NCBI GenBank assembly: GCA_016927325.1
Contig: JAFGMY010000156.1
Span: forward strand, 36,415 to 100,414
DNA from: Actinomycetota bacterium
GTDB lineage: Bacteria; Actinomycetota; Geothermincolia; Fen-727; Anoxymicrobiaceae
Reading direction: 5' to 3'
Length of the DNA stretch: 64,000 bases
Part shown: positions 170 to 18,299 of the stretch, in pieces
Layout of the letters: every line of letters starts with the position of its first letter
Position numbering within the stretch: the first letter of the stretch is position 1
Made by a program: the position numbers and the translations under genes
Notes under the pieces: model-generated
The model's input: only the letters and a program-made list of their open reading frames with translations
The model's database searches: none
What the model was told of the DNA's origin: nothing

Positions 170-696
170 TGTTGAGTGAGAGAATGGAAAAGGCTCTGAA
201 CGGCCAGCTTGCCGCGGAGCTGTACTCAGGGTACCTCTACCTTTCCATGGCAGCTTATTTCTCCTCGGAAAACCTTCCGGGTTTCGCCCGGTGGATGCGG
301 ATACACCGGCTCGAGGAAATAACCCACGGGATGAAGTTTTACGATTTCATAGAGTCCAGAGGTGGAAGGATAAGTTTGGCCGGCATTGATATGCCGCCCG
401 GTGACTGGGAAAGTGCCCTGCAGGCTTTTGAGGCTGTTCTAGCCCACGAACGCAAGGTAACGTTGATGATTCACGATCTCGTGGACCTTGCGATTGAAGA
501 GAAGGACCACGGAACCAACAGCTTTCTGCAGTGGTTCGTTGATGAGCAGGTTGAGGAAGAGGAGTCGGCGCGGAACGTTATTCAGAACTTGAAGAGAGTG
601 GAGGGGGCTCCCGGCGGCATATACATGCTGGACAAGGAGATGGGAGCGGCTGTTTTTAATCCGCAGCCGGCCGGGATCGCCGGCGGCGTCGGTTAG
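169..696 (+). CDS. ferritin-like iron storage protein (non-haem ferritin)
   Basis: 175 aa; di-iron ferroxidase residues (E..Y, ExxH, E..H pattern), 4-helix-bundle ferritin signature; ATG start. Confidence 0.8.
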   Translation: MLSERMEKALNGQLAAELYSGYLYLSMAAYFSSENLPGFARWMRIHRLEEITHGMKFYDFIESRGGRISLAGIDMPPGDWESALQAFEAVLAHERKVTLMIHDLVDLAIEEKDHGTNSFLQWFVDEQVEEEESARNVIQNLKRVEGAPGGIYMLDKEMGAAVFNPQPAGIAGGVG

Positions 697-718
697 ACAG
701 GCGACAACAGAGACGGCG

Positions 719-1963: not shown

Positions 1964-2660
1964 AATTGACACGAAAGCGTTATACGCCCTCAGCTATGGC
2001 ATGTTTATCGTTTCTTCGATAGACGGTGGTGCAATGAACGGCCAGGCCGCAAATGCGGTTATCCAGGTCACGTCGAAACCTCCCGGGATAGCGGTTGCGA
2101 TCAATAAGGAGAATTACACCCACAAGCTGATAGAAAAAAGCGGCTTGTTGGCTGTTTCGATTCTCGAGGAATCCGCTCCGCTTGCTCTAATCGGCAGGTT
2201 CGGGTTCCGATCCGGAAGAGATTTCGATAAGTTTGCCGGTATCAAATATGAGAAGACCGGGTCCGGCATCCCATGCGTCACAGAACATGTTTTATCATGG
2301 CTGGAAGGAAAAGCAATAAACAGTATGGATACCGGCACCCATACCCTGTTTCTGGTTGAAGTGACAGAGACCCGGGTACTTAGTGGCGGAAAGCCGTTGA
2401 CATATGCCGCTTATCGCGAGAGGAAAGGCAGGACGCCCGGCACTTCGCCGTTATCGATACCCGAAGATGACAACGAAATAAAGGAAGGAGAAACGAAAAT
2501 GAAGAAATACGTCTGCCAGGTTTGCGGATATGTATACGATCCCGACGAAGGTGACCCCGACGGTGACATCCCGGCAGGAACCGCTTTTGAGGATTTGCCG
2601 GACGACTGGACTTGCCCGGTTTGCGGTGCGTCAAAAGACCAGTTTGAGCCTGAGGAATAG
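1950..2660 (+). CDS. hrb: high-molecular-weight rubredoxin (flavin reductase-like domain fused to C-terminal rubredoxin)
   Basis: 236 aa; N-terminal flavin reductase-like fold; C-terminal CQVCGYVYD ... [16 protein letters not shown] rubredoxin CxxC pairs; overlaps fprA stop by 14 nt. Confidence 0.8.
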
Positions 2661-2727
2661 AACGGAACCGGAAGTAAACAACCCGGGGGAAAATGACCAG
2701 AATATATTGCATTGATATTTTTCGTAT

Positions 2728-2765
2728 ATTAGTAATTGGTATAGTAGTACCATAATATTACTAAT
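2728..2765. promoter_or_regulatory. 38-bp near-perfect palindrome ATTAGTAAT-TGGTA-tagtag-TACCA-taat-ATTACTAAT, candidate operator upstream of the ferredoxin-like gene
   Basis: Outer 9-bp arms perfect inverted repeats (2728-2736 / 2757-2765), inner arms TGGTA/TACCA (2737-2741 / 2748-2752); lies in a 228-bp AT-rich intergenic region. Confidence 0.4.
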
Positions 2766-2888
2766 TACAAGTGCCGGTCATCGGGTATTAAAAGTTTGGT
2801 TACCGGCATGAAGGAATTGCACCTCAAAAAACGTAGAAGAAAATAGTGTGCGGTTAAAATTGATGTGCGTCAGCGTTAAAGGAGCGAA

Positions 2889-3665
2889 ATGGCAGGGCGG
2901 GATATCATAAAAATAAACGAAGACCTTTGTGACGGATGTGGAAAGTGTATTCCCGCCTGTACTGAAGGTGCATTAAAGATTATAGATGGAAAAGCCAAGT
3001 TGGTCAGTGAAACTTATTGTGACGGTCTTGGTGCATGCCTGGGAAAGTGCCCGAACGGCGCTCTTGAGATTGAAACAAGAGAGGCGGACCCTTTTGACCA
3101 TGCGATCGTGGAACAACATATTTCAAAGGGGTCAGATGCAGTACTTAAGAGTGGAGAAAGTGGAGAAGCGATCAACTGCAGAAGCACGGAAAACGTTTTT
3201 GGAAGCAGTACGGCGGTGAGGGTGAAAGAAGCTGAAAGCGGCGCCGGGCAGGAGGAAGGTGGTTCCAGGCTGGGTAACTGGCCGATCCAAATAAACCTGG
3301 TTCCGCCTGAGTCTCAGTATCTGGAGAACGGTGATGTTCTGGTTGCAGCGGACTGCGTCCCATTCGCTTTTCCTGATTTCCATGAGAAACTGTTAAAGGA
3401 CAAGGTACTGCTTGTCGGGTGCCCTAAACTGGATGACCACAATTATTACCTGGAAAAACTTTCCCAGATGTTCATGAAGAACAACGTAAAGACGGTAACG
3501 ATCGCGTACATGGAAGTCCCTTGTTGTTTCGGGATGGCCCACCTGATAAGGGAGTCCATTTTGAACTCAGGAAAGCGGATATCCGTAAAGATGATAAGGT
3601 TGAGCATTAAAGGTGACATACTCATGGAGAAAGAGGAAATTATCGGCGGTGCGGGAGATGGATAA
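2889..3665 (+). CDS. 4Fe-4S dicluster ferredoxin-domain protein with uncharacterised Cys-containing C-terminal domain
   Basis: 258 aa; N-terminal CDGCGKCIPAC ... CDGLGACLGKCP (two CxxCxxCxxxCP motifs); C-terminal domain with conserved Cys (ADCVP, GCPKLDD, PCCFG) resembling CCG-type Fe-S oxidoreductase domains; RBS AAAGGAG before ATG. Confidence 0.6.
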   Translation: MAGRDIIKINEDLCDGCGKCIPACTEGALKIIDGKAKLVSETYCDGLGACLGKCPNGALEIETREADPFDHAIVEQHISKGSDAVLKSGESGEAINCRSTENVFGSSTAVRVKEAESGAGQEEGGSRLGNWPIQINLVPPESQYLENGDVLVAADCVPFAFPDFHEKLLKDKVLLVGCPKLDDHNYYLEKLSQMFMKNNVKTVTIAYMEVPCCFGMAHLIRESILNSGKRISVKMIRLSIKGDILMEKEEIIGGAGDG

Positions 3666-3921
3666 AACATGCCCGGGTCAGAGCCAGATGTTCTGGAAGC
3701 CTGAGGACATTTACGAGGTGAAATGCCCTGAATGCGGTAATATGATTGAATTTTTCAAGGATGACGTTGCCAGAAAATGCAGAAGTTGCGGCACGAAGCT
3801 GAAAAATCCAAAGCTGGACATGGGTTGCGTAGAATGGTGCCGGTACGCGGAAGAGTGCATGGCGGAGTTCGGGGAATTGCCCCGAAAAGAGGATGAGGAA
3901 GACGTTAAAACTGCGGGTTAA
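3613..3921 (+). CDS. small cysteine-rich zinc-ribbon protein (hypothetical)
   Basis: GTG at 3613 or ATG at 3658 (MDKTCPG...); two CxxC pairs (CPECG / CRSCG) plus a C-x3-C-x6-C motif; overlaps the end of the preceding gene. Confidence 0.45.
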   Translation: MTYSWRKRKLSAVREMDKTCPGQSQMFWKPEDIYEVKCPECGNMIEFFKDDVARKCRSCGTKLKNPKLDMGCVEWCRYAEECMAEFGELPRKEDEEDVKTAG

Positions 3922-4031
3922 GCCTGCGACTGGATATTGAAATGTACGATTATTTTACTTTGATGCCCACGTAACATTGCCTGATTAAACCTCTTTCCTT
4001 ATAATTCACTGAGCACAAATAATTTAAACAG

Positions 4032-4106
4032 TCCCCGGTAGCTCAATCGGTAGAGCAACTGGCTGTTAACCAGTGTGTTGCAGGTTCGAGTCCTGCCCGG
4101 GGAGCC
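4032..4106 (+). tRNA. tRNA-Asn (anticodon GTT)
   Basis: Cloverleaf: acceptor TCCCCGG/CCGGGGA, D-arm AGCTCAATCGGTAGAGC, anticodon loop CTGTTAA, T-arm GGTTCGAGTCC, discriminator G plus encoded CCA. Confidence 0.9.
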
Positions 4107-4172
4107 AATCCACCGTTTTATTATGCAGGACTCGAGCCTGCGGCTTATGTTTAAAAGGATGCGGGATGCTCG

Positions 4173-4820
4173 ATGGGGGTCACCACGGGTACGGTTGCCA
4201 ATAACAGTGACAGAAATCATTTGAACCCTGTCAGGCTGGAAAAGGGTCTTGTCAAAGATGCCGTTAATTCTTTGTGCGGGGCGTTCGGTGATTACCCGCT
4301 AGTAAAACAGTTCTTTCCGCAAAGAGAGCGCCGGGAAAGGTTTATCCGTTATTTCGTTTCGGTGCCCCTGTACTATGGAATGAAGTATGGTGAGGTCTAC
4401 GCAACATCACGCAAGGTGGAAGGGATCGCCGTGTGGATACCCTCACAGAAACATCCAATGTCTTCGGCAAGAGTAGCCCGCGCCGTCCCGTTTAACGTGT
4501 TGGTGGGATTCGGTTTCTCCGGTGCCTCAGGGATGAGAGGAGTGGACCGCTTTATTAACGAAGTTCATGAAAGGCTGGTGCCTTATGATCACTGGTTTTT
4601 GCAGATGATAGGCGTAGATCCGTGTTGCCAGGGAAAAGGATACTCCAGTATACTGCTGAAACCGATGCTTTCAAGGATAGATGAAGAGAGGCTGCCCTGC
4701 TACCTGGAAACCAACACTGAAGAGAACGTTGAAATCTACCGGCATTTTGGGTTCGAGGTTCTGGAAGAGTCGATTATTCCAGGAACCGATGTGAAGAATT
4801 GGGCAATGCTGAGAGGTTGA
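4173..4820 (+). CDS. GNAT family N-acetyltransferase
   Basis: 215 aa; acetyl-CoA binding motif region (QMIGVDPCCQGKGYSSILL) typical of GNAT motif A; start may be downstream of the first ATG. Confidence 0.7.
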   Translation: MGVTTGTVANNSDRNHLNPVRLEKGLVKDAVNSLCGAFGDYPLVKQFFPQRERRERFIRYFVSVPLYYGMKYGEVYATSRKVEGIAVWIPSQKHPMSSARVARAVPFNVLVGFGFSGASGMRGVDRFINEVHERLVPYDHWFLQMIGVDPCCQGKGYSSILLKPMLSRIDEERLPCYLETNTEENVEIYRHFGFEVLEESIIPGTDVKNWAMLRG

Positions 4821-4933
4821 ATCCACGATTCCCGCCAAGGCAGATCTAAGTCAGGCTCATAAGCCGTCCTTTGCTTAATATCGCCCGGGAAAGCTGAAAA
4901 CTTTGTATCCATCGACGTATCTCAATGTAATCA

Positions 4934-4950
4934 ATTCAATATCATTGAAT
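4934..4950. promoter_or_regulatory. perfect inverted repeat ATTCAAT-atc-ATTGAAT upstream of the aldolase gene (candidate operator)
   Basis: 7-bp perfect arms, 3-bp spacer, about 130 bp upstream of the 5080 start. Confidence 0.3.
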
Positions 4951-5079
4951 GAGCATGCGGATATATTTATGGAAAGAATACCATGTTAACAAAGTAATAT
5001 CGTCCCGGTAATCGAAATATGAACATGATGTAAGAATTGATTGATAACAATAAAATAAGACTTTCAGGGAGGGATTATA

Positions 5080-6132
5080 ATGATTGACAAGATTACGGAA
5101 CTCTTGGGAAGTGAAGCGGAAGACCTTCTGGGACACAAATGCCTTGTGCCGAAAGAGTCTCTTCACCTTCCAGGGTCTGATTTCGTTGACCGGATATTTT
5201 CCATTACCGACAGAAAACCGGCCGTAATGCGTAATTTACAGAACATTATCGAGAATGGGAGGTTAAAGGGGACCGGATATATTTCGATTTTGCCTGTAGA
5301 CCAGGGAATCGAACACAGTGCCGGGGCATCCTTCGCGCCCAATCCCGCGTATTTCGATCCTGAGAATATTGTGAAGCTGGCGATCGAGGGAGGCTGCAAC
5401 GCCGTTGCTTCAACCCTGGGGGTACTGGGCTCGGTATCGAGGAGGTTCGCGCACAGGATCCCGTTTATCGTCAAGTTGAACCATAACGAACTCCTGACTT
5501 ACCCAAACAAGTACGACCAGATTATGTTTTCGAGCGTAGACCAGGCTTTCGAGCTTGGCGCCGCCGGGGTCGGGGCGACAGTGTATTACGGGTCGGAGGA
5601 AAGCAACAGGCAGATACTCGAGGTATCCGAGGTGTTTCAGTACGCTCACGAAATGGGAATGGTGACAATACTGTGGGCTTACCTGAGAAACGAGGGTTTC
5701 AAGACCGAAAAAGCCGACTACCACACCGCGGCGGACCTGACCGGACAGGCGAACCATCTTGCCGCCACAATCGAGGCGGACATAGTAAAGCAGAAGCAGC
5801 CGGACGTCAACGGCGGATTTACGGAACTCAAGTTCGGAAAGACGGACAGGAAGGTTTACTCCGAGCTGACCTCCTCGAACCCCATTGATCTTACACGTTA
5901 CCAGGTGATGAACTGTTTCATGGGAAGGGTGGGCCTGATAAATTCCGGCGGCGCTTCAGCGGGTGCGGGTGACCTTGCTCAGGCGGTAAGGACAGCGGTG
6001 ATAAACAAGAGGGCCGGAGGCATGGGGCTTATTACGGGCAGGAAAGCGTTTCAGAAGCCGATGGATGAAGGTGTCGAGATACTCAACGCGGTTCAGGATG
6101 TATATGCCTGCAGGGAAGTGACCGTGGCCTGA
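5080..6132 (+). CDS. fbaB: class I fructose-bisphosphate aldolase (DhnA/FbaB type)
   Basis: 350 aa, same length as E. coli FbaB; TIM-barrel DhnA-family features incl. Schiff-base Lys context ([10 protein letters not shown]); strong RBS AGGGAGGG before ATG. Confidence 0.7.
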
Positions 6133-7909: not shown

Positions 7910-10102
7910 TCAATGATCCGCTTCTTCGTGAGTTGGAACCGTAAAAGAAAAAGACGAACCTTTTCCGAACTCACTCTCCGCCCATATCTGGCCGCCATGC
8001 GCCTCAATGATAGCTTTTGAGATGGACAGCCCGAGACCGGTACCACCCTGTGCGGTCTCAACGCATTCTCCTTTTGTAAACAGCGTGAATATTGAATCAA
8101 TCTGTTCCGATGGAATTCCGGAGCCGGTATCCGATATGGTAATTTTGATCTGGTCGTTTTCCAGATTCTGGGCGATTATATGCAGCCCTCCGGAAGAAGT
8201 GTATTTTATGGAGTTGCTTATGAGGTTGAAAAGTACCTGGGAAAGTCTGCCAAGGTCGGCATTCACGTGTTTCAGGTTCGGCAGGCAGTCCACCGTTACG
8301 GTAAGCCCCTTTTCATTGATCGCGCTTTCGAGCATTGAGAGTATGTTATCAATCAGCATCCTGGTATTTATCGGCTTCTTGTCCAGCGTCACAAGGCCTG
8401 CGTACATACCGGCAAGATCGATGAGGTTGTTTGCCAGGTAGGAGAGCCGGTCAATCGAAAGCGAGAGGATGTCAAGGGACCTGTTCTGGTCGTCATCGAG
8501 CGATTCCCTGGCACGGCGGGTCAGAAGCTCGAAACCAAGCTTCAGGGACGTAAGGGGCGTTCTCAGTTCGTGGGCCGCAACCCTTATAAAATCCAGCCTC
8601 GCTTTTTCCAGCTTCTTTATATCGGTAAGGTCGCTGATTACTCCAACGATAAACTCGGCTTCGCCCGATTCATTTTTTAACGGTGTTTTTAAGGTCCTGA
8701 TCGTGTGCCGGGCACCCTGCTTATCCAAAAATACCCGTTCGTCGGAGTAGACCAGTTCGCTGTTTTCAAGCACTACAGAGTCGTTTTCAGAAAGTATGCC
8801 GGAGAGCCTGGAGGGAAATATTTCAACATCTTCCTTTCCGATAATCTCGTCTTCGGAGTATCCAAGAAGCCTTGTCAGGGCGTCGTTGACGAAAGTGAAT
8901 TTCAGCTCACGGTCTTTAATAAAAACAGGTTCAGCAAGGTTATCGATAACGCTTTCAAGAAAATCACTCAACTCCTTCAGTTCTTCATGCGATTTCTTCA
9001 GGATAATACTGCGGTCGCGCTCCTCTTCGACTTGAGCGGTGACAACTTTTATCTCCTGTTCCGCCTGAATCAGGCGCAAGGCTTCCCTCATGTCGTGGGC
9101 TACCACAACAGCTCCGATTTCCCTGCCGGAACGCTTCTTTACGTCGCCGCGGCTTCTGGTTACAGGGATCAGCTCCCCTTCCTTGCTTACAAGGAAGCTC
9201 CACTTGGAGCTTTCGTCTTTTTTCTGTTCGAGATCCGGATGACCCGAGCCGGGTGGCCTGTCTACAAATAGCCTGCTCACCGGTGTGCCGATCAATTCGC
9301 CTTTCAAGTATCCCGAAAGCTTTTCCGCGACCGGATTAGCGTTATCGATAATGCCTGCAGGGTCGGCGATGAATACCGCGTCGTTTATATTTGAAATTAT
9401 TGCACCGCCCATTACTCCCGCAACGGTTGTAAGGAGGTCATACCTCGTGACAGCGAAGGCGATAACCACCGCCATCCCTATTGTGCCGACGAATGAGATT
9501 ACCGGCATGGACACCCCGAATGCAGGAAGTATTACGCTTGAGATCAGCTCGGAAGTTATTGGCAGAAGACCGGCGATGATCATGTAGACCAGCAGGTTCT
9601 TTTTTCTTTTTATGCCTGTTCTGAAATAGCTGAGCACCATTATTGTCAGGCCCGCGACAACGCAGAAAGAAACAAAAAGTTTGGAAGGAATCCGAAGCAG
9701 GCCTTCAATTTCTTTGTACTCCCACCCCGATTTGTAAAAACCTTTGAACATGAGTTCAGTTGTCCAGGTTAATATGACAAGAGCAACACTTATTGCGTAC
9801 ATGCAGAGCAGCACGGGCACTTTGAACCTGTTGTTGAAGTCCACGAATTCGGTCATTATATGAAAAACCAAAGGCCCCAGGAGACACCATCCGATAGCCG
9901 CGAATTCAGCGCCGAACGTTGCGGCCTGCTCTGTTGTCGCGACGCGCATTAATAACTCACCCGTTCTCCAGGCCGCAAAAGAAAACATGGCGAGAAAGAA
10001 AAGTTGGTTAACCCTGAATCCTGGTTCCCGGGATAATATGTACAGGCCCAGTGAAACGGTTATAAACAGACTGATTGCCGACAATATGGCATAAGTACTC
10101 AC
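7910..10102 (-). CDS. sensor histidine kinase with N-terminal 6-7 TM sensor region, PAS domains, HisKA and HATPase_c; no cognate response regulator nearby
   Basis: 730 aa; H-box AAHELRTPLTSL, N box NLISNSIKYT, G1 DTGSGIP, G2 GGTGLGLSISK; multi-TM N-terminus; GTG start. Confidence 0.85.
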   Translation of the reverse strand: MSTYAILSAISLFITVSLGLYILSREPGFRVNQLFFLAMFSFAAWRTGELLMRVATTEQAATFGAEFAAIGWCLLGPLVFHIMTEFVDFNNRFKVPVLLCMYAISVALVILTWTTELMFKGFYKSGWEYKEIEGLLRIPSKLFVSFCVVAGLTIMVLSYFRTGIKRKKNLLVYMIIAGLLPITSELISSVILPAFGVSMPVISFVGTIGMAVVIAFAVTRYDLLTTVAGVMGGAIISNINDAVFIADPAGIIDNANPVAEKLSGYLKGELIGTPVSRLFVDRPPGSGHPDLEQKKDESSKWSFLVSKEGELIPVTRSRGDVKKRSGREIGAVVVAHDMREALRLIQAEQEIKVVTAQVEEERDRSIILKKSHEELKELSDFLESVIDNLAEPVFIKDRELKFTFVNDALTRLLGYSEDEIIGKEDVEIFPSRLSGILSENDSVVLENSELVYSDERVFLDKQGARHTIRTLKTPLKNESGEAEFIVGVISDLTDIKKLEKARLDFIRVAAHELRTPLTSLKLGFELLTRRARESLDDDQNRSLDILSLSIDRLSYLANNLIDLAGMYAGLVTLDKKPINTRMLIDNILSMLESAINEKGLTVTVDCLPNLKHVNADLGRLSQVLFNLISNSIKYTSSGGLHIIAQNLENDQIKITISDTGSGIPSEQIDSIFTLFTKGECVETAQGGTGLGLSISKAIIEAHGGQIWAESEFGKGSSFSFTVPTHEEADH

Positions 10103-10428
10103 GTAACGGCCGCTTTCTGAATATAACGACTTTAAGTTAAGACAGGCCTTTGCCTGTGACCGCTTGAGTGTTTTCCGCCATTAACAGACCAACAGTTCCT
10201 CATTCATGAATAGAAAACAATGTTCCTGTTAAATACTACATAGCAACGTATTATATTCATATATTATTCATTGATATGCAGAAGAAACAATTTTAATAAT
10301 TATAACATATATGGACTTACTCGAATTCGAAGTTGGCAAGAATCTTTAAGCAATCCTCTGTTATTCTTATAACGTGATTTCAGGGTAAGCCGACACATTA
10401 GATCTGGGACATGAAATAAGTGGAAGGT

Positions 10429-11517
10429 TCAGGTACCGTCTGGGTCGGAGCAGTTATCGTATGATGTTGCTTTGCCTGACTTTTTTCTGCGCTTTCCGCG
10501 CGGTTTGCTCTTCCTGGCGGAGTATTTGATGTATATGAATACGGCCACCGCGAGCAGCAGGAGTCCGGCGATAAGGAATATTACCGGCACCCATTTTCTT
10601 GCGAAATCAAGGGTGGCGGCATGTTTTGCCGCAAGGTCTACCGTTTCCCTGATACTTTCCCCGGTTCGTTTGTAGTCTAGAGATGCGACTTCAACAAGGT
10701 TGTCTTGTTCTCCCTGGAGAGCGGTGTTTACATAATACGTCCGGTTATAGACAGGGGTATCGACCATTATCCCGGTTGTTGGCTCAAAAGCGGTTATCGA
10801 AGAAATAGTAGTATAGTATGCAACGGGCAACTGCTGATCGTCCGTTACCGGGAGGCCTGGATTCGACGTCAGTCTCTTAAGCATCGCGCCCGATATTTCA
10901 GTAGGGAAGCCGAGAGGAGAGCCGACTATTTTCTCGGAATCCACTGTTATGTCAAAAAGATAAACCCTGACGTCCTTGTAATCTTCCCCGTCCCTTGTTT
11001 CCTCCTTCACAAATTGCAGTCTTATAACGTCAACGGTTTCGTTGTCCCAGCTTTCAAAAACTCCAGGCTTGAGGTCGAATGGAATGAGGTAGCCCTTTCG
11101 CTCCTGGTCGCTTGCTTCTCCAATTACGTTTTGCCCGGTTTTCCTGTCCATGTCGTAAATATGCTTTATCGTAGCCAGATTCTGGCCTGTTCTGGACTTG
11201 AGTTCTATGACCTCGTCAATGGCAATAACATCAGCACTGCTTTTTCCGGGAATGCTTTTCAGTGTCCATGACAAGGTTATCGGTAGCGAGATTTCCTGGT
11301 TTAACGCGTAGGGGTTGAAAGACGCGGGGTCGACATTCAGAAGGAGAGTACCTTCAAATTGCATCGTGAATTCGATATCGTCATTAACTCTAATAAAACC
11401 GGGGAGTATCACCTTGCTCCATATCGGAGCCATTGCAATCAGGAGGATACCTATTGTCACCAGGGCGATTATCAGTACTTTGGTCTTCTTCTTCAATTTC
11501 TCATTCTCAATTCTCAA
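10429..11517 (-). CDS. hypothetical bitopic membrane protein (N- and C-terminal TM anchors, large extracytoplasmic domain; DUF3068-like architecture)
   Basis: 362 aa; N-terminal TM (VLIIALVTIGILLIAMAPIW), C-terminal TM (WVPVIFLIAGLLLLAVAVFIYI) followed by a Lys/Arg-rich tail; the DUF3068 assignment is from recall of topology and size only. Confidence 0.4.
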   Translation of the reverse strand: MRIENEKLKKKTKVLIIALVTIGILLIAMAPIWSKVILPGFIRVNDDIEFTMQFEGTLLLNVDPASFNPYALNQEISLPITLSWTLKSIPGKSSADVIAIDEVIELKSRTGQNLATIKHIYDMDRKTGQNVIGEASDQERKGYLIPFDLKPGVFESWDNETVDVIRLQFVKEETRDGEDYKDVRVYLFDITVDSEKIVGSPLGFPTEISGAMLKRLTSNPGLPVTDDQQLPVAYYTTISSITAFEPTTGIMVDTPVYNRTYYVNTALQGEQDNLVEVASLDYKRTGESIRETVDLAAKHAATLDFARKWVPVIFLIAGLLLLAVAVFIYIKYSARKSKPRGKRRKKSGKATSYDNCSDPDGT

Positions 11518-11750
11518 CTCAGGCCATCGAAAAAAACGATAGTGACGAAATAACCAAACGACACCACTTCAGTAAGGTTTTCTATTAAAGTAGAACCTGT
11601 CCTCTGACATGTGCGTCATTTAAAACCCTCAATATTATTTCGGCAATATTGCTTACTTACTTGTGGTAAATAAATTACGGAAGGTATCTACGGGTGTTTA
11701 TTGGTAAAATATACAACTGCATTACATTAATCGGTGAACAAACAACAAGG

Positions 11751-12470
11751 ATGCGCAAGATGGCTGAAAAAGCAGTGGATGAGAACAGGCAGAAGCTGGA
11801 GGCCCTGTTTGAGATCAGCAAAGCGCTTACGTCGGATACATACCTGGATGACATACTGAAATTAATCGTGGTTGTCACCGCCAAGGTGATGGACTCAAAC
11901 ATCTGTTCGCTTATGCTTCTTAACAGTGACACCCAGGAACTCGAGATCAGGGCGACACAATCGGTAAGCGATCTCTACCTGAAGAAGCCCAGGATAAAGC
12001 TGGGGGAGGGCGTTAGCGGAATAGTCGCCAAAGAAAACAGGGTGATTGTCTGCAGGGATGTCAAGAAAGACCCGCTTTACCTCAATAAGGAAGTGGCAAA
12101 AAAGGAGAACTTGTGTTCCCTGCTCAGCATGCCCTTGAGCCTGAAGGGAAAGGTGCTCGGGGTGATCAACTGCTATACCTCGGAGGAGCACGAGTTCACG
12201 CAGGAAGAAAAGGACGTGCTGTCCATGGTTGCAAATCAGGCGGCGTTGACGATTGAGAACACGGACCTTGCCGTCAGGATGAAGTTGATCGAGGAAGAAC
12301 TGGAGACCAGAAAGATAATCGAAAGGGCCAAGGACATCCTCATGGACGAACGAGGGGTCAGCGGGCACGAGGCGTTTCAGGCGATTAGGCGCAAATCGAT
12401 GGATGCCAGGAAACCGATCAGGGATGTGGCCGAAGCAATAATACTGGCGAGTGAGGTCGGCGGCAACTGA
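11751..12470 (+). CDS. GAF-ANTAR RNA-binding antitermination regulator
   Basis: GAF domain (ICSLMLLNSDTQELEIRATQ ... GEGVSGIVA) followed by ANTAR (ETRKIIERAKDILMDERGVSGHEAFQAIRRKSMDARKPIRDVAEAII); in-frame alternative starts at 11694 (GTG) and 11760. Confidence 0.8.
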   Translation: MRKMAEKAVDENRQKLEALFEISKALTSDTYLDDILKLIVVVTAKVMDSNICSLMLLNSDTQELEIRATQSVSDLYLKKPRIKLGEGVSGIVAKENRVIVCRDVKKDPLYLNKEVAKKENLCSLLSMPLSLKGKVLGVINCYTSEEHEFTQEEKDVLSMVANQAALTIENTDLAVRMKLIEEELETRKIIERAKDILMDERGVSGHEAFQAIRRKSMDARKPIRDVAEAIILASEVGGN

Positions 12471-12520
12471 TTTTCATCACTGTACTTGACTGAGAATCGG
12501 CCTTCTCATATTATTCACAA

Positions 12521-12600
12521 AACGTACAACGGTGTACGGTTACCGACTATGGTGTCAAACAGGAGACAAAGGCGTCATGCTTTGGTCTCTTTTTTTTATT
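12521..12600 (+). promoter_or_regulatory. 5' leader of the NuoEF operon: candidate ANTAR target (hexaloop hairpin CGTAC-AACGGT-GTACG, second weak hairpin TGTC..GACA) overlapping an intrinsic terminator
   Basis: Hairpin 12523-12538 has a 6-nt loop with A at position 1 and G at position 4, matching the ANTAR hexaloop motif; the GACA of hairpin 2 (12565-12568) is part of the 5' arm of the terminator. Confidence 0.45.
12562..12598 (+). terminator. Rho-independent terminator in the leader immediately upstream of the NuoEF start
   Basis: Stem GAGACAAAG / CTTTGGTCTC (one bulge), loop GCGTCATG, followed by T-run TCTTTTTTTTATT; ends 15 nt before the 12614 ATG. Confidence 0.7.
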
Positions 12601-12613
12601 TAGAAAGGATATC

Positions 12614-14968
12614 ATGGAAGAACTGGAATCCACGGGAATCAAGGCTTTTGTTGAAGACGCAGTTTCAAGGAATGAGTTCGACAAGAGTCGAATTCACGCG
12701 ATTCTTCAAGAGGTCCAGGAGCGTTTCAACTTTTTGCCAGAGCAGGCTCTAATTGATATTGCTTCATCCCTGCAGATGCCCCTTGTTGATATTTATTCAG
12801 TTGCTACGTTTTTTAAATCATACTCGATGGAGCCAAAAGGAAAGCACATTGTCACTGTATGCATGGGGACGGCATGCCATGTCAGAAACTCGGACGGATT
12901 GCTTAAAGAGATATGCAGATATCTTGACGTGGAACCCGGGGGAACCACCGGAGACGGCTTGTTTACGGTGGAATCCGTGAACTGTCTCGGCGCTTGCGCG
13001 ATAGGCCCGGTTATTGTGGTCGACGGTAAGTACTATGGTGATATGAATGCGGCAAAAGTGAATAAAGTCTTGCAGAAATATCAGAAAGCAGCCTCTGTTG
13101 ATGTCGCCATATCGAAATTTAGAAGTCCGGGGGATCTTGAGGAATATCGAATTAAGATTAGGGAACTGCGATATCCCGATACCGTGAGTGTTTCTCTCTG
13201 TTCGGGTACGGGATGCAAGGCAAGCGGCAGCAATGAAGTGTATGAAGCTCTCGAGTCCGAACTGAAGCGAAGCGGGCAAAGCGAAAAAGTAATGCTTCGG
13301 AGGACCGGTTGCCGTGGATTCTGCGAAAGAGGACCGCTGCTGGTAATAAACCCCGCAAATGTGCTTTATCAAAAGGTGAGGCCGGAAGATGTTCGGGAAA
13401 TAGTCAAATGCACGATACAAGACGGCGAGATTGTGGAACGATTGCTGTATGAAGATCCGGTAGTGGGGGGGAAAGTAATAAGCGAGGACGAGATTCGTTT
13501 TTACAAAAAACAGGATAGAAAGATATTGGGCACAAACGGTGATATTGACCCGTTGAATATTGACGATTATATAGCGATTGGAGGGTACCGTTCGCTGAAG
13601 AAAGCTCTCTTGGAGTTTGAGCCGGTGCAGATAATCGAGGAAGTTGAGAGAGCCGGTTTAAGGGGCAGAGGAGGAGGTGGTTTCCCTGCCGCGCAGAAGT
13701 GGAAATCCTGCAGAGCCGCAAACTCGGTGGATGGGGTCAAGTATGTACTGTGTAATGCAGACGAAGGAGACCCCGGAGCATTTATGGACCGGTCACTTCT
13801 CGAAGGGAACCCCCATTCCGTGCTTGAGGGGATGATAGTCGGCGCAAAAGCGATCGGCGCCAATTCGGGTTACATATATGTAAGGAACGAATATCCACTG
13901 GCGGTTGAGAGCGTAACAAGGGCTATTGAGGACGCCGAAGATAAGGGCCTGCTGGGTGAAAATATTCTAGGTTCCGGATTCGATTTCAAGGTTGGAGTAA
14001 GCAGGGGCGGCGGAGCTTTTGTATGCGGCGAATCGACCGCCTTGATGGCGTCCATAGAAGGAAAAATCGGGGAGCCGCGCGAGAAGTACGTTCACACCGC
14101 TATAAAAGGTCTCCATGTAAGGCCTACGAACCTGAACAATGTTGAAACCTGGGCTAATGTGCCGCTTATTATCAATGAGGGCGCGGAAGCTTATGCAAAA
14201 ACGGGCACCAAAAACAGCACGGGCACTAAAATATTTTCCCTGGTTGGAAAGATCAACAATACAGGGCTTGTCGAAGTACCAATGGGCATCACACTAAGGG
14301 AAATCATTTTTGATATCGGTGGCGGCATTCCCAACGGCAAAAAATTCAAGGCGGTTCAGACGGGGGGTCCTTCAGGCGGATGCATACCGGAATCCCTGAT
14401 AGATATCGCGGTTGATTTTGACCGGTTGACCGAAGTCGGCTCGATGATGGGATCGGGCGGGATGATAGTGATGGATGAAGACACCTGCATGGTGGATGTG
14501 GCAAAGTATTTCCTGAATTTCCTTACCGATGAATCATGCGGCAAGTGTACTCCCTGCAGGGAAGGGCTGAAGCATATGTTGGAGATAGTAACCGATATAA
14601 CCGAGGGAAACGGCTCTGACGAGAAGCTGGAGCTTCTTCTGGAGCTGGCCGAGGTTGTAAGGGACACATCGCTTTGCGGGCTTGGACAGACGGCGCCTAA
14701 TCCGGTCCTGTCGACCATAAAATATTTTGAAGATGAGTACCGGGAACATATACATGAAAAGAAGTGCAGGGCTGGTGTATGCAAGGCGTTGATCGAGTAC
14801 AGCATAGACGGTGAAGCGTGCACCGGATGCACCCGTTGCGCCAGAGAGTGTCCGGTGTTTGCGATAAGTGGAGACAAGAAAGAGCCGCACGAGATAGATC
14901 CGGCGAAATGCGACAAATGCGGTATCTGCTACGAAGTGTGCGAATTTGGTGCGGTCATAAGGAAGTGA
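12614..14968 (+). CDS. NADH-binding flavoprotein: fused NuoE-like (24 kDa, [2Fe-2S]) + Trx-like [2Fe-2S] domain + NuoF-like (51 kDa, FMN/NADH, [4Fe-4S]) + C-terminal 2x[4Fe-4S] ferredoxin domain (HydC/HydB- or BfuC/BfuB-like)
   Basis: 784 aa; NuoE Cys (VCMGTACHVRN ... VNCLGACAIGP); second Trx-like cluster (CSGTGCKASG ... GCRGFCERGP); FMN loop GRGGGGFPAAQKW; [4Fe-4S] ESCGKCTPCREG; C-terminal CTGCTRCARECP ... CDKCGICYEVC. Confidence 0.85.
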   Translation: MEELESTGIKAFVEDAVSRNEFDKSRIHAILQEVQERFNFLPEQALIDIASSLQMPLVDIYSVATFFKSYSMEPKGKHIVTVCMGTACHVRNSDGLLKEICRYLDVEPGGTTGDGLFTVESVNCLGACAIGPVIVVDGKYYGDMNAAKVNKVLQKYQKAASVDVAISKFRSPGDLEEYRIKIRELRYPDTVSVSLCSGTGCKASGSNEVYEALESELKRSGQSEKVMLRRTGCRGFCERGPLLVINPANVLYQKVRPEDVREIVKCTIQDGEIVERLLYEDPVVGGKVISEDEIRFYKKQDRKILGTNGDIDPLNIDDYIAIGGYRSLKKALLEFEPVQIIEEVERAGLRGRGGGGFPAAQKWKSCRAANSVDGVKYVLCNADEGDPGAFMDRSLLEGNPHSVLEGMIVGAKAIGANSGYIYVRNEYPLAVESVTRAIEDAEDKGLLGENILGSGFDFKVGVSRGGGAFVCGESTALMASIEGKIGEPREKYVHTAIKGLHVRPTNLNNVETWANVPLIINEGAEAYAKTGTKNSTGTKIFSLVGKINNTGLVEVPMGITLREIIFDIGGGIPNGKKFKAVQTGGPSGGCIPESLIDIAVDFDRLTEVGSMMGSGGMIVMDEDTCMVDVAKYFLNFLTDESCGKCTPCREGLKHMLEIVTDITEGNGSDEKLELLLELAEVVRDTSLCGLGQTAPNPVLSTIKYFEDEYREHIHEKKCRAGVCKALIEYSIDGEACTGCTRCARECPVFAISGDKKEPHEIDPAKCDKCGICYEVCEFGAVIRK

Positions 14969-14972
14969 TCAT

Positions 14973-15596
14973 GTGGTTAAGCTCATAATCGACGGTCAGC
15001 ACATAGAGGTGGAGGATGGCCTGACCGTTCTTGAGGCGGCAAAGCGGTATGGAATCGACATCCCAACGTTGTGTCACGATGAGGGATTGTCCGAGTACGG
15101 CGCATGCAGGATATGCATGGTAGAACTTAAAAAAGGTGAACGGTCGAGTCTCGTGGCATCGTGTTGTTTCCCGGTCCGGGACGGTATTGAGATATTGACT
15201 GATTCGCTGAGGGTGCAGAAGGCTAGAAAAATGATAATCGAACTGATGCTCGCGTCCTGTCCGAATTCCAGGACGCTCCAGTGCCTTGCCTCAAAGTACG
15301 GTGTAACCAGGGTGAGGTTCAAGAGCGAGGACAGGGGATGCCTGCTGTGCGGCCTTTGCGTACGAATGTGTGAACAGCAGATGAAGGGTGGAGCGATCGG
15401 CTTCGCAGGCCGTGGGGTCGGCCGGGAAGTAGCAATGCCGTTCCATCATGCGCCCGCAGAGTGCCGTGAATGCGGTGCGTGCTTATATATATGCCCGGTG
15501 TGCGAGTTGCCGTGTTGCGGGCCGCTTCAACCCGGTGAACTCTGTAATTCGTGCTTCGAAAATATCAGGATAGAACCATTCCCGTGCAGGGAATAA
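14973..15596 (+). CDS. NuoG/HydA N-terminal-like Fe-S electron-transfer protein ([2Fe-2S] plus [4Fe-4S] domains only; no catalytic domain)
   Basis: 207 aa; [2Fe-2S] motif CHDEGLSEYGACRICMVE, then Cys clusters (CLLCGLCVRMCE; CRECGACLYICPVC); GTG start overlaps upstream stop. Confidence 0.7.
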   Translation: MVKLIIDGQHIEVEDGLTVLEAAKRYGIDIPTLCHDEGLSEYGACRICMVELKKGERSSLVASCCFPVRDGIEILTDSLRVQKARKMIIELMLASCPNSRTLQCLASKYGVTRVRFKSEDRGCLLCGLCVRMCEQQMKGGAIGFAGRGVGREVAMPFHHAPAECRECGACLYICPVCELPCCGPLQPGELCNSCFENIRIEPFPCRE

Positions 15597-15617
15597 TAAA
15601 AGGAGGATAAGCCAGAG

Positions 15618-17198
15618 ATGTCAATTACCAAGATAAACAGGTCGGCAGCGACGCTATCAAAAAACAGAACGCCGGATAGCGTCAGCCCGTTCAGCGGTAT
15701 GTGCGCAACTTGCGTTGAGGGCTGTATAGGAATGTGCGAAATCGGAAAATCCTCGATAAGGGGAGCGGAGTGCATTTATCCTCAACCGTTTGGCATTATG
15801 ACCGCGGCATCGGAAAAGGATTATCCCGTAGATTTTTCTCATTTCAACATCATGGGCAGCGCGGTTGGGGCATACGGGGTTCCCGCAGACAGCGAACACG
15901 CGATTTTTACAAATGTGGATCTGGAGACTACCGTAGGTGACAAAAACCCTATCAAGCTCAAGCTGCCGTTCGTTGTGCCCGGGCTGGGCTCAACCATGGT
16001 AGCCAAAAGAAACTGGGACGGGCTGGCGGTAGGGACCGCGATTTCAGGCACGCTGTTGACGATCGGGGAGAACGTCTGCGGAATGGATGACGAGTCCATT
16101 ATTGAGAATGGAAGGATAAAGAAGTCCCCGGACATGGAAAACCGCATTAATACCTACAGGAAATGGCAGTTGGACGGTTACGGAGATATCGTGGTCCAGT
16201 TCAACGTTGAAGATACCAACCTGGGTGTGCCCGAGTACGTCCTTCAGGACCTGGGCGTGGAGACCGTGGAGCTCAAATGGGGCCAGGGGGCGAAGGATAT
16301 CGGTGGCGAGGTCAAGCTCAAGAAAATTGAAAAAGCCGTTGAGATGAAGAAGAAGGGTTATATTGTTCTTCCTGACCCCGAGGACCCGGAGTCGGTTGAG
16401 GCTTATAAAGTCGGGGGTATAAAAGAGTTTGAGAGGCACTCAAGGCTGGGAATGGTAACGGAAGAAGGATTCAGCCGGAGTGTCGAGAAGCTGCGCGGCC
16501 TGGGAGCCAGGAGGGTATTTCTGAAGACCGGTGCTTACAGGCCGGCCGATCTGGCCAGAGCCGTCAAGTTCGCTTCAGACAACCGGATAGATATGCTGAC
16601 CGTCGACGGCGCGGGCGGCGGCACCGGCATGAGTCCCTGGCGCATGATGAACGAGTGGGGAATACCGACAATTGAGCTTTGCAGTCTTACCTATGAGTAC
16701 ATAGACTACCTTGCCAGGCAGGGTAAGTATGTTCCCTCGGTTGTGTTCGCCGGTGGAATAACCATGGAAGACCAGATAATCAAGGCTTTTGCGCTGGGTG
16801 CTCCTTACGTAAAAGGGGTTGGGATGGCAAGAAGCTCTCTTGCGGCGGCGATGGTCGGCAAGACTATAGGTGGAATTGTGGAAGAGAAAAACCTGCCTGT
16901 TTATATTGAGCGGCACGGAACTACCCTGGAAGAGATATTCGTGACCGGTGTCCATCTGAAAGACACCTACGGAGAGGACTTTACCAGGAAGCACCCCGGC
17001 GGAGTTGGAGTTTATACATACTACCAGAGGCTGGCGCAGGGCATGAGGCAGTTTATGTGCGGGGCAAGGAAGTTCGCATTCGAGCATGTGGCCAGAAATG
17101 ATATTGTCGCTTTGACAAAGGAGGCCGCTGAAGTGTCCGGGATAACTTATGTAATGGAACTGGACAAAGATGAAGCCTGGGACATTATCAAGGGATAG
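15618..17198 (+). CDS. FMN-binding glutamate-synthase-family oxidoreductase (GltB central FMN domain-like, stand-alone) with N-terminal CxxCxxxCxxxC motif
   Basis: 526 aa; N-terminal MCATCVEGCIGMCE; TIM-barrel FMN domain signature (VDGAGGGTGMSPW, VVFAGGITMEDQIIKAFALGA); RBS AAAGGAGGA. Confidence 0.7.
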   Translation: MSITKINRSAATLSKNRTPDSVSPFSGMCATCVEGCIGMCEIGKSSIRGAECIYPQPFGIMTAASEKDYPVDFSHFNIMGSAVGAYGVPADSEHAIFTNVDLETTVGDKNPIKLKLPFVVPGLGSTMVAKRNWDGLAVGTAISGTLLTIGENVCGMDDESIIENGRIKKSPDMENRINTYRKWQLDGYGDIVVQFNVEDTNLGVPEYVLQDLGVETVELKWGQGAKDIGGEVKLKKIEKAVEMKKKGYIVLPDPEDPESVEAYKVGGIKEFERHSRLGMVTEEGFSRSVEKLRGLGARRVFLKTGAYRPADLARAVKFASDNRIDMLTVDGAGGGTGMSPWRMMNEWGIPTIELCSLTYEYIDYLARQGKYVPSVVFAGGITMEDQIIKAFALGAPYVKGVGMARSSLAAAMVGKTIGGIVEEKNLPVYIERHGTTLEEIFVTGVHLKDTYGEDFTRKHPGGVGVYTYYQRLAQGMRQFMCGARKFAFEHVARNDIVALTKEAAEVSGITYVMELDKDEAWDIIKG

Positions 17199-17230
17199 TC
17201 GAGGGGGCTTAAATAATAAATTCAGAAAAA

Positions 17231-17267
17231 GTAATGCGGGTCTGTGCAGGCCCGCATTACTTTTTTC
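17231..17267 (+). terminator. Rho-independent terminator ending the GAF-ANTAR-controlled operon
   Basis: Perfect stem GTAATGCGGG / CCCGCATTAC, loop TCTGTGCAGG, followed by TTTTTTCC. Confidence 0.85.
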
Positions 17268-17373
17268 CTCAACTGTTGATAGAAATATGTGTTATTGCCG
17301 GAGGCAACTCACTTTTATAATAGAATTAAAGTATAAGGAATAGGATAACAGCGTTAAGAGAGGTGTGGGATTC

Positions 17374-17691
17374 ATGCCCAAGTGCAAGAAATGCGGAACG
17401 GATTTCTCTGAATTCGAGGAAAACTGTCCTTATTGCGGTACCGTGGCCACTGCGGACACAATTACCGACATAATGGATAAGCCGATCAGTGGGTCCGGCA
17501 AGAGTAAGAAGGGGAAAAAGGATAAAAAGCCGTTATTCTCAAGAGTTCGCAGAGAAGAAAAACATAAGGCGGACTGTGAATGTAAAAAATGCGGCGCATC
17601 TTTGCATGATGGTGAAATATGCCCGAAATGTGGTTTTAGTCCAGGAGTGGAATCAATTACAAGCGTTATGAAAAAGAGCAAGGGGGAGTAA
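17374..17691 (+). CDS. double zinc-ribbon protein (hypothetical)
   Basis: CKKCG ... CPYCG and CKKCG ... CPKCG pairs; Lys-rich linker; RBS GAGGTG 10 nt before the ATG at 17374 (ORF track starts at GTG 17365). Confidence 0.55.
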   Translation: MPKCKKCGTDFSEFEENCPYCGTVATADTITDIMDKPISGSGKSKKGKKDKKPLFSRVRREEKHKADCECKKCGASLHDGEICPKCGFSPGVESITSVMKKSKGE

Positions 17692-17693
17692 AA

Positions 17694-18299
17694 GTGGCGA
17701 TATGCTCTAACTGCGGACATGAGATGAATGACAGCGAAAGCTTCTGTACAAACTGTGGAGCGCAGAGAGGGCAGATGATTACACCTGCGCCTGCGCCTCC
17801 TGCTCAGCCACACGGGACAGCACCGGCGGGAAGCGGTTTTTCACCGGGAACTCCGCCACCGAGATATGAAGCGGGAAAAAAGAAGGGCCTTCCACGAGGC
17901 GCGAAAATAGCCATAATAGCGGGCCTGGTTATTGTCCTTCTTGTAGCCGGAACAATAGCTGTCGGCGTCCTTGTGTTCTGGAAGGCGGTAACCGGCCCCG
18001 CTGACGCGGCGAACTCCTTTGTCGAGGCGGTGAATGAAGGTGATCTGTCAACAGCATGGGACTACTTCTCCAGCGAAGCGCAGGAAGAAGAGGGTAGATC
18101 TGAGTTTGACGAGCAGTTCGGGATCCTTGAAGGCGAGTTGGAAACCTGGAACACGAACAGTATTAATGTGGAGAACAACACCGCTGAGGTAGAAATGGAC
18201 CTTGAAAGCAAGGACGGCGAGAAAGCGGACTGGGAGATGAACCTGGTCAAGCAGGATGGGGAGTGGAAAATCCTGAACATTTACTTCAATGCCGAGTAA
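17694..18299 (+). CDS. zinc-ribbon membrane-anchored protein with extracytoplasmic NTF2/SnoaL-like domain (hypothetical)
   Basis: 201 aa; N-terminal CSNCG ... CTNCG; Pro-rich linker; TM IAIIAGLVIVLLVAGTIAVGVLVFW; RBS AGGGGGAG before GTG. Confidence 0.55.
   Translation: MAICSNCGHEMNDSESFCTNCGAQRGQMITPAPAPPAQPHGTAPAGSGFSPGTPPPRYEAGKKKGLPRGAKIAIIAGLVIVLLVAGTIAVGVLVFWKAVTGPADAANSFVEAVNEGDLSTAWDYFSSEAQEEEGRSEFDEQFGILEGELETWNTNSINVENNTAEVEMDLESKDGEKADWEMNLVKQDGEWKILNIYFNAE

Follow-up and report, generated by a model that had tools for sequence, protein, structure and literature searches.

A 64-kb stretch of a metagenome-assembled genome (MAG) from an anaerobic Actinomycetota bacterium, the whole of which we call the window, holds a compact operon that appears to encode a soluble three-protein oxidoreductase of the Bfu family (HydABC-type). 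Its third protein resembles, distantly, the flavin mononucleotide (FMN) subunit of glutamate synthase, and we propose that the complex serves nitrogen assimilation, a reading to which we assign a probability of roughly 0.55. The cofactor motifs, the conserved gene set, the nitrogen-related gene context and the design of the leader RNA, on which the proposal draws, are observed directly.

Four open reading frames (ORFs) follow one another on the forward strand: a GAF-ANTAR regulator (11694-12470; 258 amino acids (aa) as the longest ORF), a BfuC-BfuB fusion (12614-14968; 784 aa), a Type-2 BfuA-like electron carrier (14973-15596; 207 aa) and a divergent TIM-barrel flavoprotein resembling the GltB FMN domain (15618-17198; 526 aa), which is the presumed catalytic subunit. 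The ORF list and Pfam bear out the positions, strand and domains that a first-pass annotation of the window had given for all four. The intergenic gaps, 4 nt between the 784-aa and 207-aa genes and 21 nt between the 207-aa and 526-aa genes, fit a single operon; the alternative of two unrelated operons that happen to adjoin was rejected in view of the order and spacing kept across phyla. The strong terminator that had been noted at the operon end lies at 17225-17266 (no strand assigned; -27.4 kcal/mol) and has a 19-bp stem flanked by A- and U-runs, and because these runs stand on either side it could work bidirectionally. The proteins of the window bear generic names only, and the closest relatives are Candidatus Anoxymicrobiaceae.

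Judged by its motifs, the 784-aa protein is a complete Bfu core. From the N terminus it presents a NuoE-type [2Fe-2S] domain (cluster C1), a thioredoxin-like [2Fe-2S] domain (B5) and the NuoF FMN/NADH site, followed by a [4Fe-4S] site (B1), the His/Cys site B2 and a C-terminal 2x[4Fe-4S] module (B3, B4); the family is built on just such a BfuBC core with clusters C1 and B1-B5 (Schut et al., 2022). Pfam identifies 2Fe-2S_thioredx in two stretches, Complex1_51K (5.5e-42), SLBB, NADH_4Fe-4S (2.2e-33) and a C-terminal Fer4 dicluster at residues 730-781, and NCBIfam is concordant. The BfuC moiety (residues 15-157) matches the 2Fe-2S_thioredx and NuoE/HoxE models and has cysteines at 83, 88, 124 and 128, while the B5 ligands Cys 196, 201, 233 and 237 are all in place, as are those of B1 and B3/B4. 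At B2, residues C438, C476, H525, C531 and C536 of A. mobile BfuB align with C625, T663, H712, C718 and C723 of the window protein. Threonine at the second of these positions is the majority state, and the B2 histidine occurs in nearly all BfuBs and not in non-bifurcating homologues (Schut et al., 2022); in most solved Bfu enzymes the site holds zinc and no iron-sulfur (FeS) cluster. The B2 histidine and three cysteines are kept in the other 58 full-length members of the cluster, position 663 being T or S (A in one), and departures are confined to a seven-member NuoE-fused bin, one sequence of which differs at every B1 and B2 ligand column. The claim that the NuoF moiety carries the hallmarks of HydB/BfuB subunits was therefore sound, as the C-terminal 2x[4Fe-4S], the N-terminal [2Fe-2S] and the His/Cys B2 site are all found.

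Comparison with solved structures points the same way. The top PDB match of the 784-aa protein is the B subunit of WorABCSL (9mqx_B, 793 bits), the other top matches are the B subunits of HydABC (T. kivui, A. woodii and T. maritima), NiFe-Bfu and NfnABC, and all of the nearest solved structures of this core are bifurcating complexes. Three forms of BfuB occur among the related loci: one of about 620 aa, beside which NuoE is a protein of its own (about 155 aa in other phyla); the 784-aa NuoE fusion, only in Anoxymicrobiaceae-type Actinomycetota; and one of about 1050 aa in which Fer4_20 and Pyr_redox_2 take the place of the C-terminal ferredoxin domain.

The 207-aa protein has a [2Fe-2S] site, 2x[4Fe-4S] and a C-terminal four-Cys site, with neither a catalytic domain nor a His-ligated cluster. 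Because it lacks the His-ligated cluster, its motifs class it as a Type 2 BfuA, in which the catalytic site sits on an additional subunit (scheme of Schut et al., 2022). Pfam detects Fer2_4 (2.1e-16) and a Fer4 dicluster, with concordant NCBIfam results, which confirms its earlier description as an FeS carrier without a catalytic domain. Twelve cysteines (34/45/48/64, 123/126/129/133 and 164/167/170/174) are invariant among 53 homologues, and an extra Cys4 motif (177/181/191/194) is conserved in 92-96% of them. The top PDB match is WorA (9mqx_A, 141 bits), which recruits its partner through a C-terminal Cys4 zinc finger and an adaptor helix (PMC12318220).

We consider the 526-aa protein to be a sister, distant but real, of the GltB FMN domain. 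Its sole Pfam match is Glu_synthase, at 57.2 bits against a cut-off of 20.4 and over model positions 185-301 of 369, and NCBIfam lacks a model for the protein. The motif VELKWGQGAKDIGGE, which starts at residue 217, is in register with E. coli GltB, and alignment with hhalign places K-x-x-QGAK…GG and DGxGGTG in register with both E. coli and archaeal-type GltB. In the window protein QGAK (residue 223) and DGAGGGTG (residue 330) are 107 residues apart, and the corresponding motifs of E. coli GltB, at 934 and 1027, are 93 apart; we take the QGAKPGEGG and DGGTGA residues to be catalytic in GltB. The whole-barrel alignment to the archaeal-type subunit is weak, and a phmmer search of the PDB with the protein returned nothing relevant and no GltB chain. 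An AlphaFold model (predicted template-modelling score, pTM, 0.75) has a confident barrel, and its fold matches are FMN-linked TIM barrels, led by alpha-hydroxy-acid oxidases, type II isopentenyl diphosphate isomerase and IMPDH. Alpha-hydroxy-acid oxidases carry a catalytic HGGRQ at a beta-strand, and the 526-aa protein has DGxGGTG at the corresponding strand. We rejected an alpha-hydroxy-acid oxidase or dehydrogenase as its identity, there being no FMN_dh match in Pfam, no His-x-x-Arg and GltB-type motifs instead. Since the fold identifies merely the superfamily, the affinity to GltB comes from the motifs and the Pfam match only. Thus, of the first-pass description of the protein as a GltB-type FMN oxidoreductase, what stands is the partial domain match and the two motifs, and nothing beyond that level.

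A related locus (L030:137-8649) shows that this protein is something other than an ordinary fragment of archaeal-type GltB. Here the GltB-like gene adjoins a genuine archaeal-type glutamate synthase (GOGAT) set, whose true FMN subunit has Fer4 domains and scores 210 bits over Glu_synthase positions 43-368, against 64 bits and a partial match for the GltB-like gene. The two proteins are carried side by side and therefore represent two different families, so that the fragment explanation, against which the earlier annotation had asked for a check, is ruled out. The set also holds a GXGXG+Fer4_20+Pyr_redox_2+Fer4 protein, and a 368-aa ORF without a Pfam match stands where an amidotransferase would be expected. 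The family of the 526-aa protein is compact and strongly conserved. Relatives are present in at least 586 GTDB species genomes, and only 155 representatives at 50% identity reach E < 1e-30. Homologues are 61-93% identical across phyla, and the range is 61-68% from Actinomycetota to Aminicenantes, Bacillota, Planctomycetota (Scalindua), Chloroflexota, Methanoperedens and Thermoplasmatota.

To assess how far the gene set is conserved, we compared the 80 nearest species loci, taken from matches in at least 586 species, and five loci from contig look-ups. A BfuA-like gene lies directly upstream of the GltB-like gene in 68 of the 78 loci that have at least 1 kb of upstream sequence. Of the 58 loci with at least 5 kb available, 52 have both the BfuA-like gene and NuoF ahead of the GltB-like gene on its own strand, 51 of them also with NuoE; five loci have no Bfu gene at all. 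The triad spans more than 20 bacterial and archaeal lineages, among them Actinomycetota, Aminicenantes, Bacillota, Chloroflexota, Planctomycetota, Bacteroidota, Zixibacteria, Methanoperedens and Thermoplasmatota. That the triad might fail to hold together in related genomes had been named beforehand as a risk, and the 52 of 58 informative loci, in many phyla, show it conserved as a unit.

The related loci also supply a link to glutamate synthase that the window itself lacks. In 39 of 86 loci, or about 45%, a homologue of GltD is fused to BfuB (in most cases) or adjacent to it; it is nearly full length and 31-37% identical to E. coli GltD. The earlier statement that the partner is not GltD-like therefore holds for the window and fails for the family, and the frequency of the GltD homologue strengthens the glutamate-synthase reading. 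One Aminicenantes locus (L031:2400-11600) carries both kinds of electron-input module before a single GltB-like gene: NuoE with a BfuB::GltD fusion of 1038 aa, another NuoE with a short BfuB of 624 aa, and a pair of BfuA-like genes, which suggests alternative or combined inputs from NADPH and ferredoxin. In Methanoperedens a second GltB-like paralogue lies upstream of the NuoE-BfuB-BfuA-GltB-like operon and is transcribed divergently from it (L026:5015-6604, reverse strand). Two further loci (L005:2100-5800 and L048, about 700-5200) have genes for HydS-like (Fe_hyd_lg_C), DRTGG, HATPase_c and PHP proteins directly upstream of NuoE. We take these to be the sensory genes that usually precede HydABC hydrogenase operons, and their presence hints at H2 or redox sensing of the operon in those lineages.

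The genes that surround the operon in related genomes point towards nitrogen. Within 10 kb, 43 of the 86 loci, in 19 of 31 taxon groups, have genes for glutamine synthetase (GS), glutamate dehydrogenase (GDH), Amt, ANTAR proteins, NtrC-type regulators or GAF kinases, counts that are phylogenetically non-independent and derive from the 80 closest of the species matches; P-II and NAD synthase are also among the neighbours within this distance. GS is found near the operon in 14 loci and GDH in 16, about 16% each, which by a rough estimate is some 10 times the chance expectation for 1-3 copies per genome. In L001 the orthologous operon is preceded by amt, glnB (P-II), NAD synthase, GDH, DUF2804 and a GAF-ANTAR gene; asnC and glnA precede it in Aminicenantes, and a GAF kinase, an NtrC-type regulator and GDH in Scalindua. 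GS and two GDH genes flank the operon in L005, and in Hakubella the GltB-like gene begins 55 nt after the end of GS.

If the complex makes glutamate, its nitrogen donor is probably free ammonia. No gene for a GATase_2, central or GXGXG domain was found by Pfam in the conserved operons, in the window or among the recurrent neighbours, and tblastn with probes for these three domains from E. coli gave no match, a weak negative, since the GXGXG probe missed the real domain of L030. The ammonia tunnel of canonical GltS is formed jointly by the central and FMN domains. Free ammonia is the likelier donor because no amidotransferase gene accompanies the operon and because the tunnel needs the central domain, which is missing here. 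These same points make it quite improbable that we are dealing with a glutamine-dependent GOGAT that recruits its GATase_2 and accessory domains in trans, from genes at other sites in the genome. Such an arrangement would have parallels in archaeal-type GOGATs, which are split into separate polypeptides, and it would accord with GS, the maker of glutamine, as a frequent neighbour, with the archaeal-type GOGAT set that adjoins the GltB-like gene in L030, and with the fact that the window covers only 64 kb of the genome.

The regulatory region is likewise consistent with a role in nitrogen metabolism. The regulator ORF matches GAF_2 (4e-19) and ANTAR (PF03861; 1.6e-18) in Pfam, with NCBIfam concordant; its true start is probably the ATG at 11760, giving 236 aa, because AAGGA lies upstream and the orthologue in L001 has 241 aa. 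By NCBIfam and PDB comparison the GAF domain is nearest to those of PtsP/EI-Ntr and NifA-like proteins, and GAF domains of the PtsP and NifA type sense 2-oxoglutarate and glutamine, which we treat as a lead only. In the PDB the ANTAR domain matches Rv1626, NasR and one response-regulator structure.

The leader between the regulator and the 784-aa gene is 143 nt long. A putative sigma-70-like promoter, TTGACT-17-TATTAT (12486-12514, forward strand), agrees with the consensus at 10 of 12 positions and is the top site in a 7-kb scan, and TTGAC-type boxes stand at the equivalent relative position in the leaders of L006, L007 and L009. Downstream, on the same strand, lies a predicted ANTAR target of two hairpins, P1 (12523-12538, CGUAC-AACGGU-GUACG) and P2 (12565-12576, GAC-AAAGGC-GUC), each with a hexaloop that has A at position 1 and G at position 4. 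Between them folds a third mini-hairpin (12545-12556, forward strand, GAC-UAUGGU-GUC) that resembles a duplicated P2; it is peculiar to the window and missing from five orthologous leaders. P2 lies within the 5' arm of the leader's intrinsic terminator (12562-12597, forward strand; stem GGAGAC..GGUCUC plus U8, -13.5 kcal/mol), the presence of which the first-pass annotation had correctly noted, and the predicted fold loses this terminator once P1 and P2 are forced. The arrangement of P1, P2 and an overlapping terminator recurs in six leaders (the window, L001, L006, L007, L009 and L075). Across these, three of the five stem pairs of P1 show compensatory changes, the GAC/GUC stem of P2 is invariant in 6/6, and the loop G4 is invariant in both hairpins, while several orthologues have G in place of A at loop position 1. 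In the extracted leader cores 97.9% of cells pair, against 17-52% in slid controls, a percentage that is biased upward by the choice of the hairpins by eye. A scan of Rfam at gathering thresholds gave a single match, a tRNA, and a permissive scan of the leader gave only sub-threshold matches at chance level, including a narK motif at 13 bits.

These features follow the known ANTAR target, in which a terminator overlaps the second of two hexaloop hairpins (A1, G4) (Ramesh et al., 2012, PMC3369931). We suggest that the GAF domain binds a ligand that reports nitrogen or carbon status, with 2-oxoglutarate and glutamine as candidates, and that the ligand-bound protein would bind P1 and P2 in the nascent leader and so allow read-through; as P2 shares bases with the terminator stem, binding would block termination. 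ANTAR control is confined to the actinobacterial lineage, in eight loci. It had been described as unusual for a NuoEF-type module, a view that we do not share if the operon serves nitrogen assimilation, because ANTAR regulons consist mostly of nitrogen genes, glutamate synthase genes included; no GAF-ANTAR protein had been characterised as of 2012 (Ramesh et al., 2012, PMC3369931).

The cofactor chain suggests how such a complex might work. In the BfuC-BfuB fusion, FMN would take hydride from NADH, and single electrons would be exchanged with ferredoxin through the C-terminal clusters B3/B4, an NADH/ferredoxin activity that we infer from the motifs. The BfuA-like subunit would wire this core through its [2Fe-2S], its 2x[4Fe-4S] and the C-terminal Cys4 docking site, and electrons would then reach the N-terminal Cys4 cluster of the 526-aa subunit and, from there, its FMN. 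To judge from motifs and gene context, that flavin would reduce 2-iminoglutarate (from 2-oxoglutarate and ammonia) to L-glutamate, for a net reaction of NADH + 2 reduced ferredoxin + 2 (2-oxoglutarate + NH4+) -> NAD+ + 2 oxidised ferredoxin + 2 glutamate. In other words, low-potential electrons from ferredoxin would supply the driving force that the GS-GOGAT route pays for in ATP. The 2-oxoglutarate + NH4+/glutamate couple has a standard potential of about -0.14 V, or near -0.25 V when ammonium is millimolar, and a mixed NADH/ferredoxin donor near -0.4 V adds roughly the free energy of one ATP; assimilation of higher affinity and independent of ATP would therefore be possible. The catabolic, glutamate-oxidising direction was rejected on general thermodynamic grounds, the couple being too positive to reduce NAD+ and ferredoxin jointly. 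The boldest form of the proposal is a confurcating, ammonia-dependent glutamate synthase, switched by the GAF-ANTAR protein in response to 2-oxoglutarate or glutamine, that would constitute an unrecognised third route of primary ammonium assimilation, common among energy-limited anaerobes. The pooled donor, near -400 mV, would then pull the amination of 2-oxoglutarate at low ammonium, without the ATP of GS-GOGAT. We advance this form tentatively and regard it as unlikely.

A considerable body of observations weighs against the assignment to glutamate synthesis, beginning with the identity of the catalytic subunit. The likeness to GltB is thin, the 57-bit Pfam match extending over one third of the model; hhalign against E. 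coli GltB gives a probability of 65% over 85 columns; and a search of the PDB with the family profile places GltB at E = 0.48, with de novo TIM barrels on top. GltB is not among the top 60 fold matches of the model, in which the predicted local distance difference test (pLDDT) is below 50 over residues 1-96 and several loops, and no counterpart of the 2-oxoglutarate-binding arginine of GltB could be mapped in the protein. The C-x5-C-x4-C motif of the [3Fe-4S] cluster (residue 1102 of E. coli GltB) is missing from the window protein and the family consensus, with an invariant N-terminal C29xxC32xxxC36xxxC40 in its stead. Together with this motif, the amidotransferase, central and GXGXG domains of GltB are missing, so that the substrate and the nitrogen donor proposed here are putative. 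As to context, Pfam finds no nitrogen genes in the operon's flanks within the window, some GltB-like relatives adjoin FeoB and IclR, and the neighbourhood counts have the non-independence mentioned above. It is conceivable, and in our estimation doubtful, that the same complex acts on a different compound, be it another 2-oxo acid, an alpha-hydroxy acid, an enoate or an imine, and that the GltB likeness reflects the superfamily only. Here the absence of any FMN_dh, IMPDH or DHO_dh match in Pfam at E<=0.01 speaks against this, as do the DGxGGTG and K-x-x-QGAK…GG motifs of GltB type in register, and the association with GS, GDH, Amt-P-II and nitrogen-regulator genes in 19 taxon groups would be hard to explain otherwise.

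The remaining objections concern the coupling. Characterised Bfu enzymes have third substrates of intermediate potential, with couples between those of NAD and ferredoxin, whereas the glutamate couple lies well above NADH, and true bifurcation or confurcation is therefore hypothetical. High-potential members of the family, Rub-Bfu and Nuo-Bfu, have been predicted (Schut et al., 2022). The first two B5 cysteines are replaced by Ser or Gly in 22-24 of 30 GltD-fused BfuBs and in about one third of the short forms; because B5 is part of the proposed bifurcation site, relatives without these ligands may not bifurcate. Stand-alone GltB-like genes also occur, in Solincola, Hakubella and Moorellaceae. 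A plain glutamate-synthase-like enzyme that depends on NADH or ferredoxin, uncoupled and with the Bfu core as an electron-input module only, would account for these points: with a couple so far above NADH coupling is unnecessary, the stand-alone genes show that other donors are usable, many GltD-fused relatives have lost the B5 ligands, and B2 in most solved Bfu enzymes is a zinc site. We hold this to be possible, if somewhat unlikely. Against it, the window protein keeps the His/Cys B2 site, B3, B4 and B5, which mark BfuB off from NuoF, HoxF and FdsB, and the retention across phyla of about 350 extra residues and four clusters argues for use of the ferredoxin branch.

The proposed function, if borne out, would have consequences beyond this locus. 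The textbook routes from ammonium to glutamate are GDH, of low affinity, and GS-GOGAT, which consumes ATP. If ferredoxin and NADH were used through the Bfu core, strict anaerobes would gain a redox-driven alternative to both. Reconstructions of nitrogen assimilation would change for the MAGs that carry the operon (Aminicenantes, Anoxymicrobiaceae, Dehalococcoidia, Scalindua, Methanoperedens, Thermoplasmatota and others), and the Bfu family would gain a class of third substrate with a high-potential acceptor, which could explain some of its 17-18 unassigned clades. The 526-aa subunit is abundant and strongly constrained and has only generic annotation. For the study of RNA regulation, the locus is a tractable GAF-ANTAR system whose RNA target is clear.

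The operon lies in a window in which nearly all genes are on the forward strand and GC skew is positive throughout, features that fit a segment of the leading strand. The genes at 169-3665 look like an anaerobe's defence against oxygen and reactive oxygen species: besides ferritin they encode a 258-aa ferredoxin-domain protein, a fusion of flavin reductase and rubredoxin, and a flavodiiron-type protein in which an ODP beta-lactamase fold is joined to flavodoxin. A tRNA-Asn(GTT) gene comes next, at 4032-4107. On the reverse strand, 7910-11517 encodes a 730-aa seven-transmembrane PAS histidine kinase and a 362-aa member of the PorA family (PF11271, 99 bits). These two genes sit between DeoC and helix-turn-helix-cupin genes and the regulator, where L001 has amt, glnB, NAD synthase and GDH. 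Beyond the operon terminator, 17365-18299 encodes two zinc-ribbon proteins, one of 108 aa and the other of 201 aa and with DUF4878, that are syntenic in L001 and L006, and from 22.7 kb on there are housekeeping genes, including those for LeuRS, ComEA/EC, HolA, LepA, HrcA, DnaJ, PhoH, YbeY, RecA, RNase Y and a MiaB-like protein.

We considered how the locus relates to systems already described. At the level of sequence it shows every feature by which the Bfu family is recognised (Schut et al., 2022). It is not filed as a canonical GOGAT, because the [3Fe-4S] motif and the amidotransferase fail to appear. The partners listed in the Bfu survey are hydrogenase, Fdh, Nfn, F420, Wor, Bam, Codh, Por, Mbh, Nuo and Rub, with 17-18 clades left unassigned, and glutamate synthase is nowhere among the partners in that paper, its supplement included (Schut et al., 2022). 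A Bfu- or NuoEF-linked glutamate synthase was not found in the literature searched, which took in later Bfu papers and covered subscription journals thinly; papers on Pelotomaculum, Margulisbacteria and the Hakuba Actinobacteria name glutamate synthase only generically. The first-pass annotation did not know the pairing of NuoEF with GltB as a characterised enzyme, and the survey and these searches agree. Within that literature, this is a widespread putative enzyme type without prior functional characterisation, and its presumed third-substrate partner is new to the Bfu family.

The regulatory part resembles the EutV, NasR and AmiR systems in its ANTAR output domain, its dual-hexaloop RNA target with P2 overlapping an intrinsic terminator, and target genes that belong to nitrogen metabolism. 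It differs from them in the GAF sensor, in the G1 loops of several orthologues and in the third, P2-like hairpin of the window. With NfnABC and StnABC the enzyme shares the Bfu core and, in its GltD-fused relatives, a GltD-derived FAD/NADPH module joined to NuoF. In NfnABC and StnABC, however, it is BfuA that carries the GltD-like domain, with NADP(H) as third substrate, whereas in the relatives of our locus GltD is at the C terminus of BfuB, where it replaces the ferredoxin domain, and a GltB-like subunit is always added; the window itself has no GltD.

With GltBD and archaeal-type GOGAT there is in common the FMN TIM barrel, the K-x-x-QGAK…GG and DGGTG motifs in register, the feeding of the flavin by an FeS chain, the GltD homologue in about 45% of sister loci and the context of nitrogen-assimilation genes. 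Unlike them, the 526-aa protein has no amidotransferase, central or GXGXG domain and no CX5CX4C, and has the N-terminal CxxCxxxCxxxC instead; electrons would enter through the NuoEF/Bfu core, and the Pfam match is partial (57 bits, against 210 for the archaeal-type subunit of L030). The nearest counterpart as a whole complex is WorABCSL, a tungsten aldehyde oxidoreductase of the Bfu family (PDB 9mqx; PMC12318220), whose subunits are the closest structural relatives of the BfuB moiety (793 bits) and of the BfuA-like protein (141 bits). It too has a small BfuA with a C-terminal Cys4 element and neither a His-ligated cluster nor a catalytic domain, and its catalytic site is on an extra subunit fed through BfuA. 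In contrast to WorABCSL, BfuC is fused to BfuB in the window, the presumed third substrate is far more positive than the aldehyde/acid couple, and the place of the WorSL tungstopterin module is taken by what appears to be an FMN TIM barrel of the GltB lineage.

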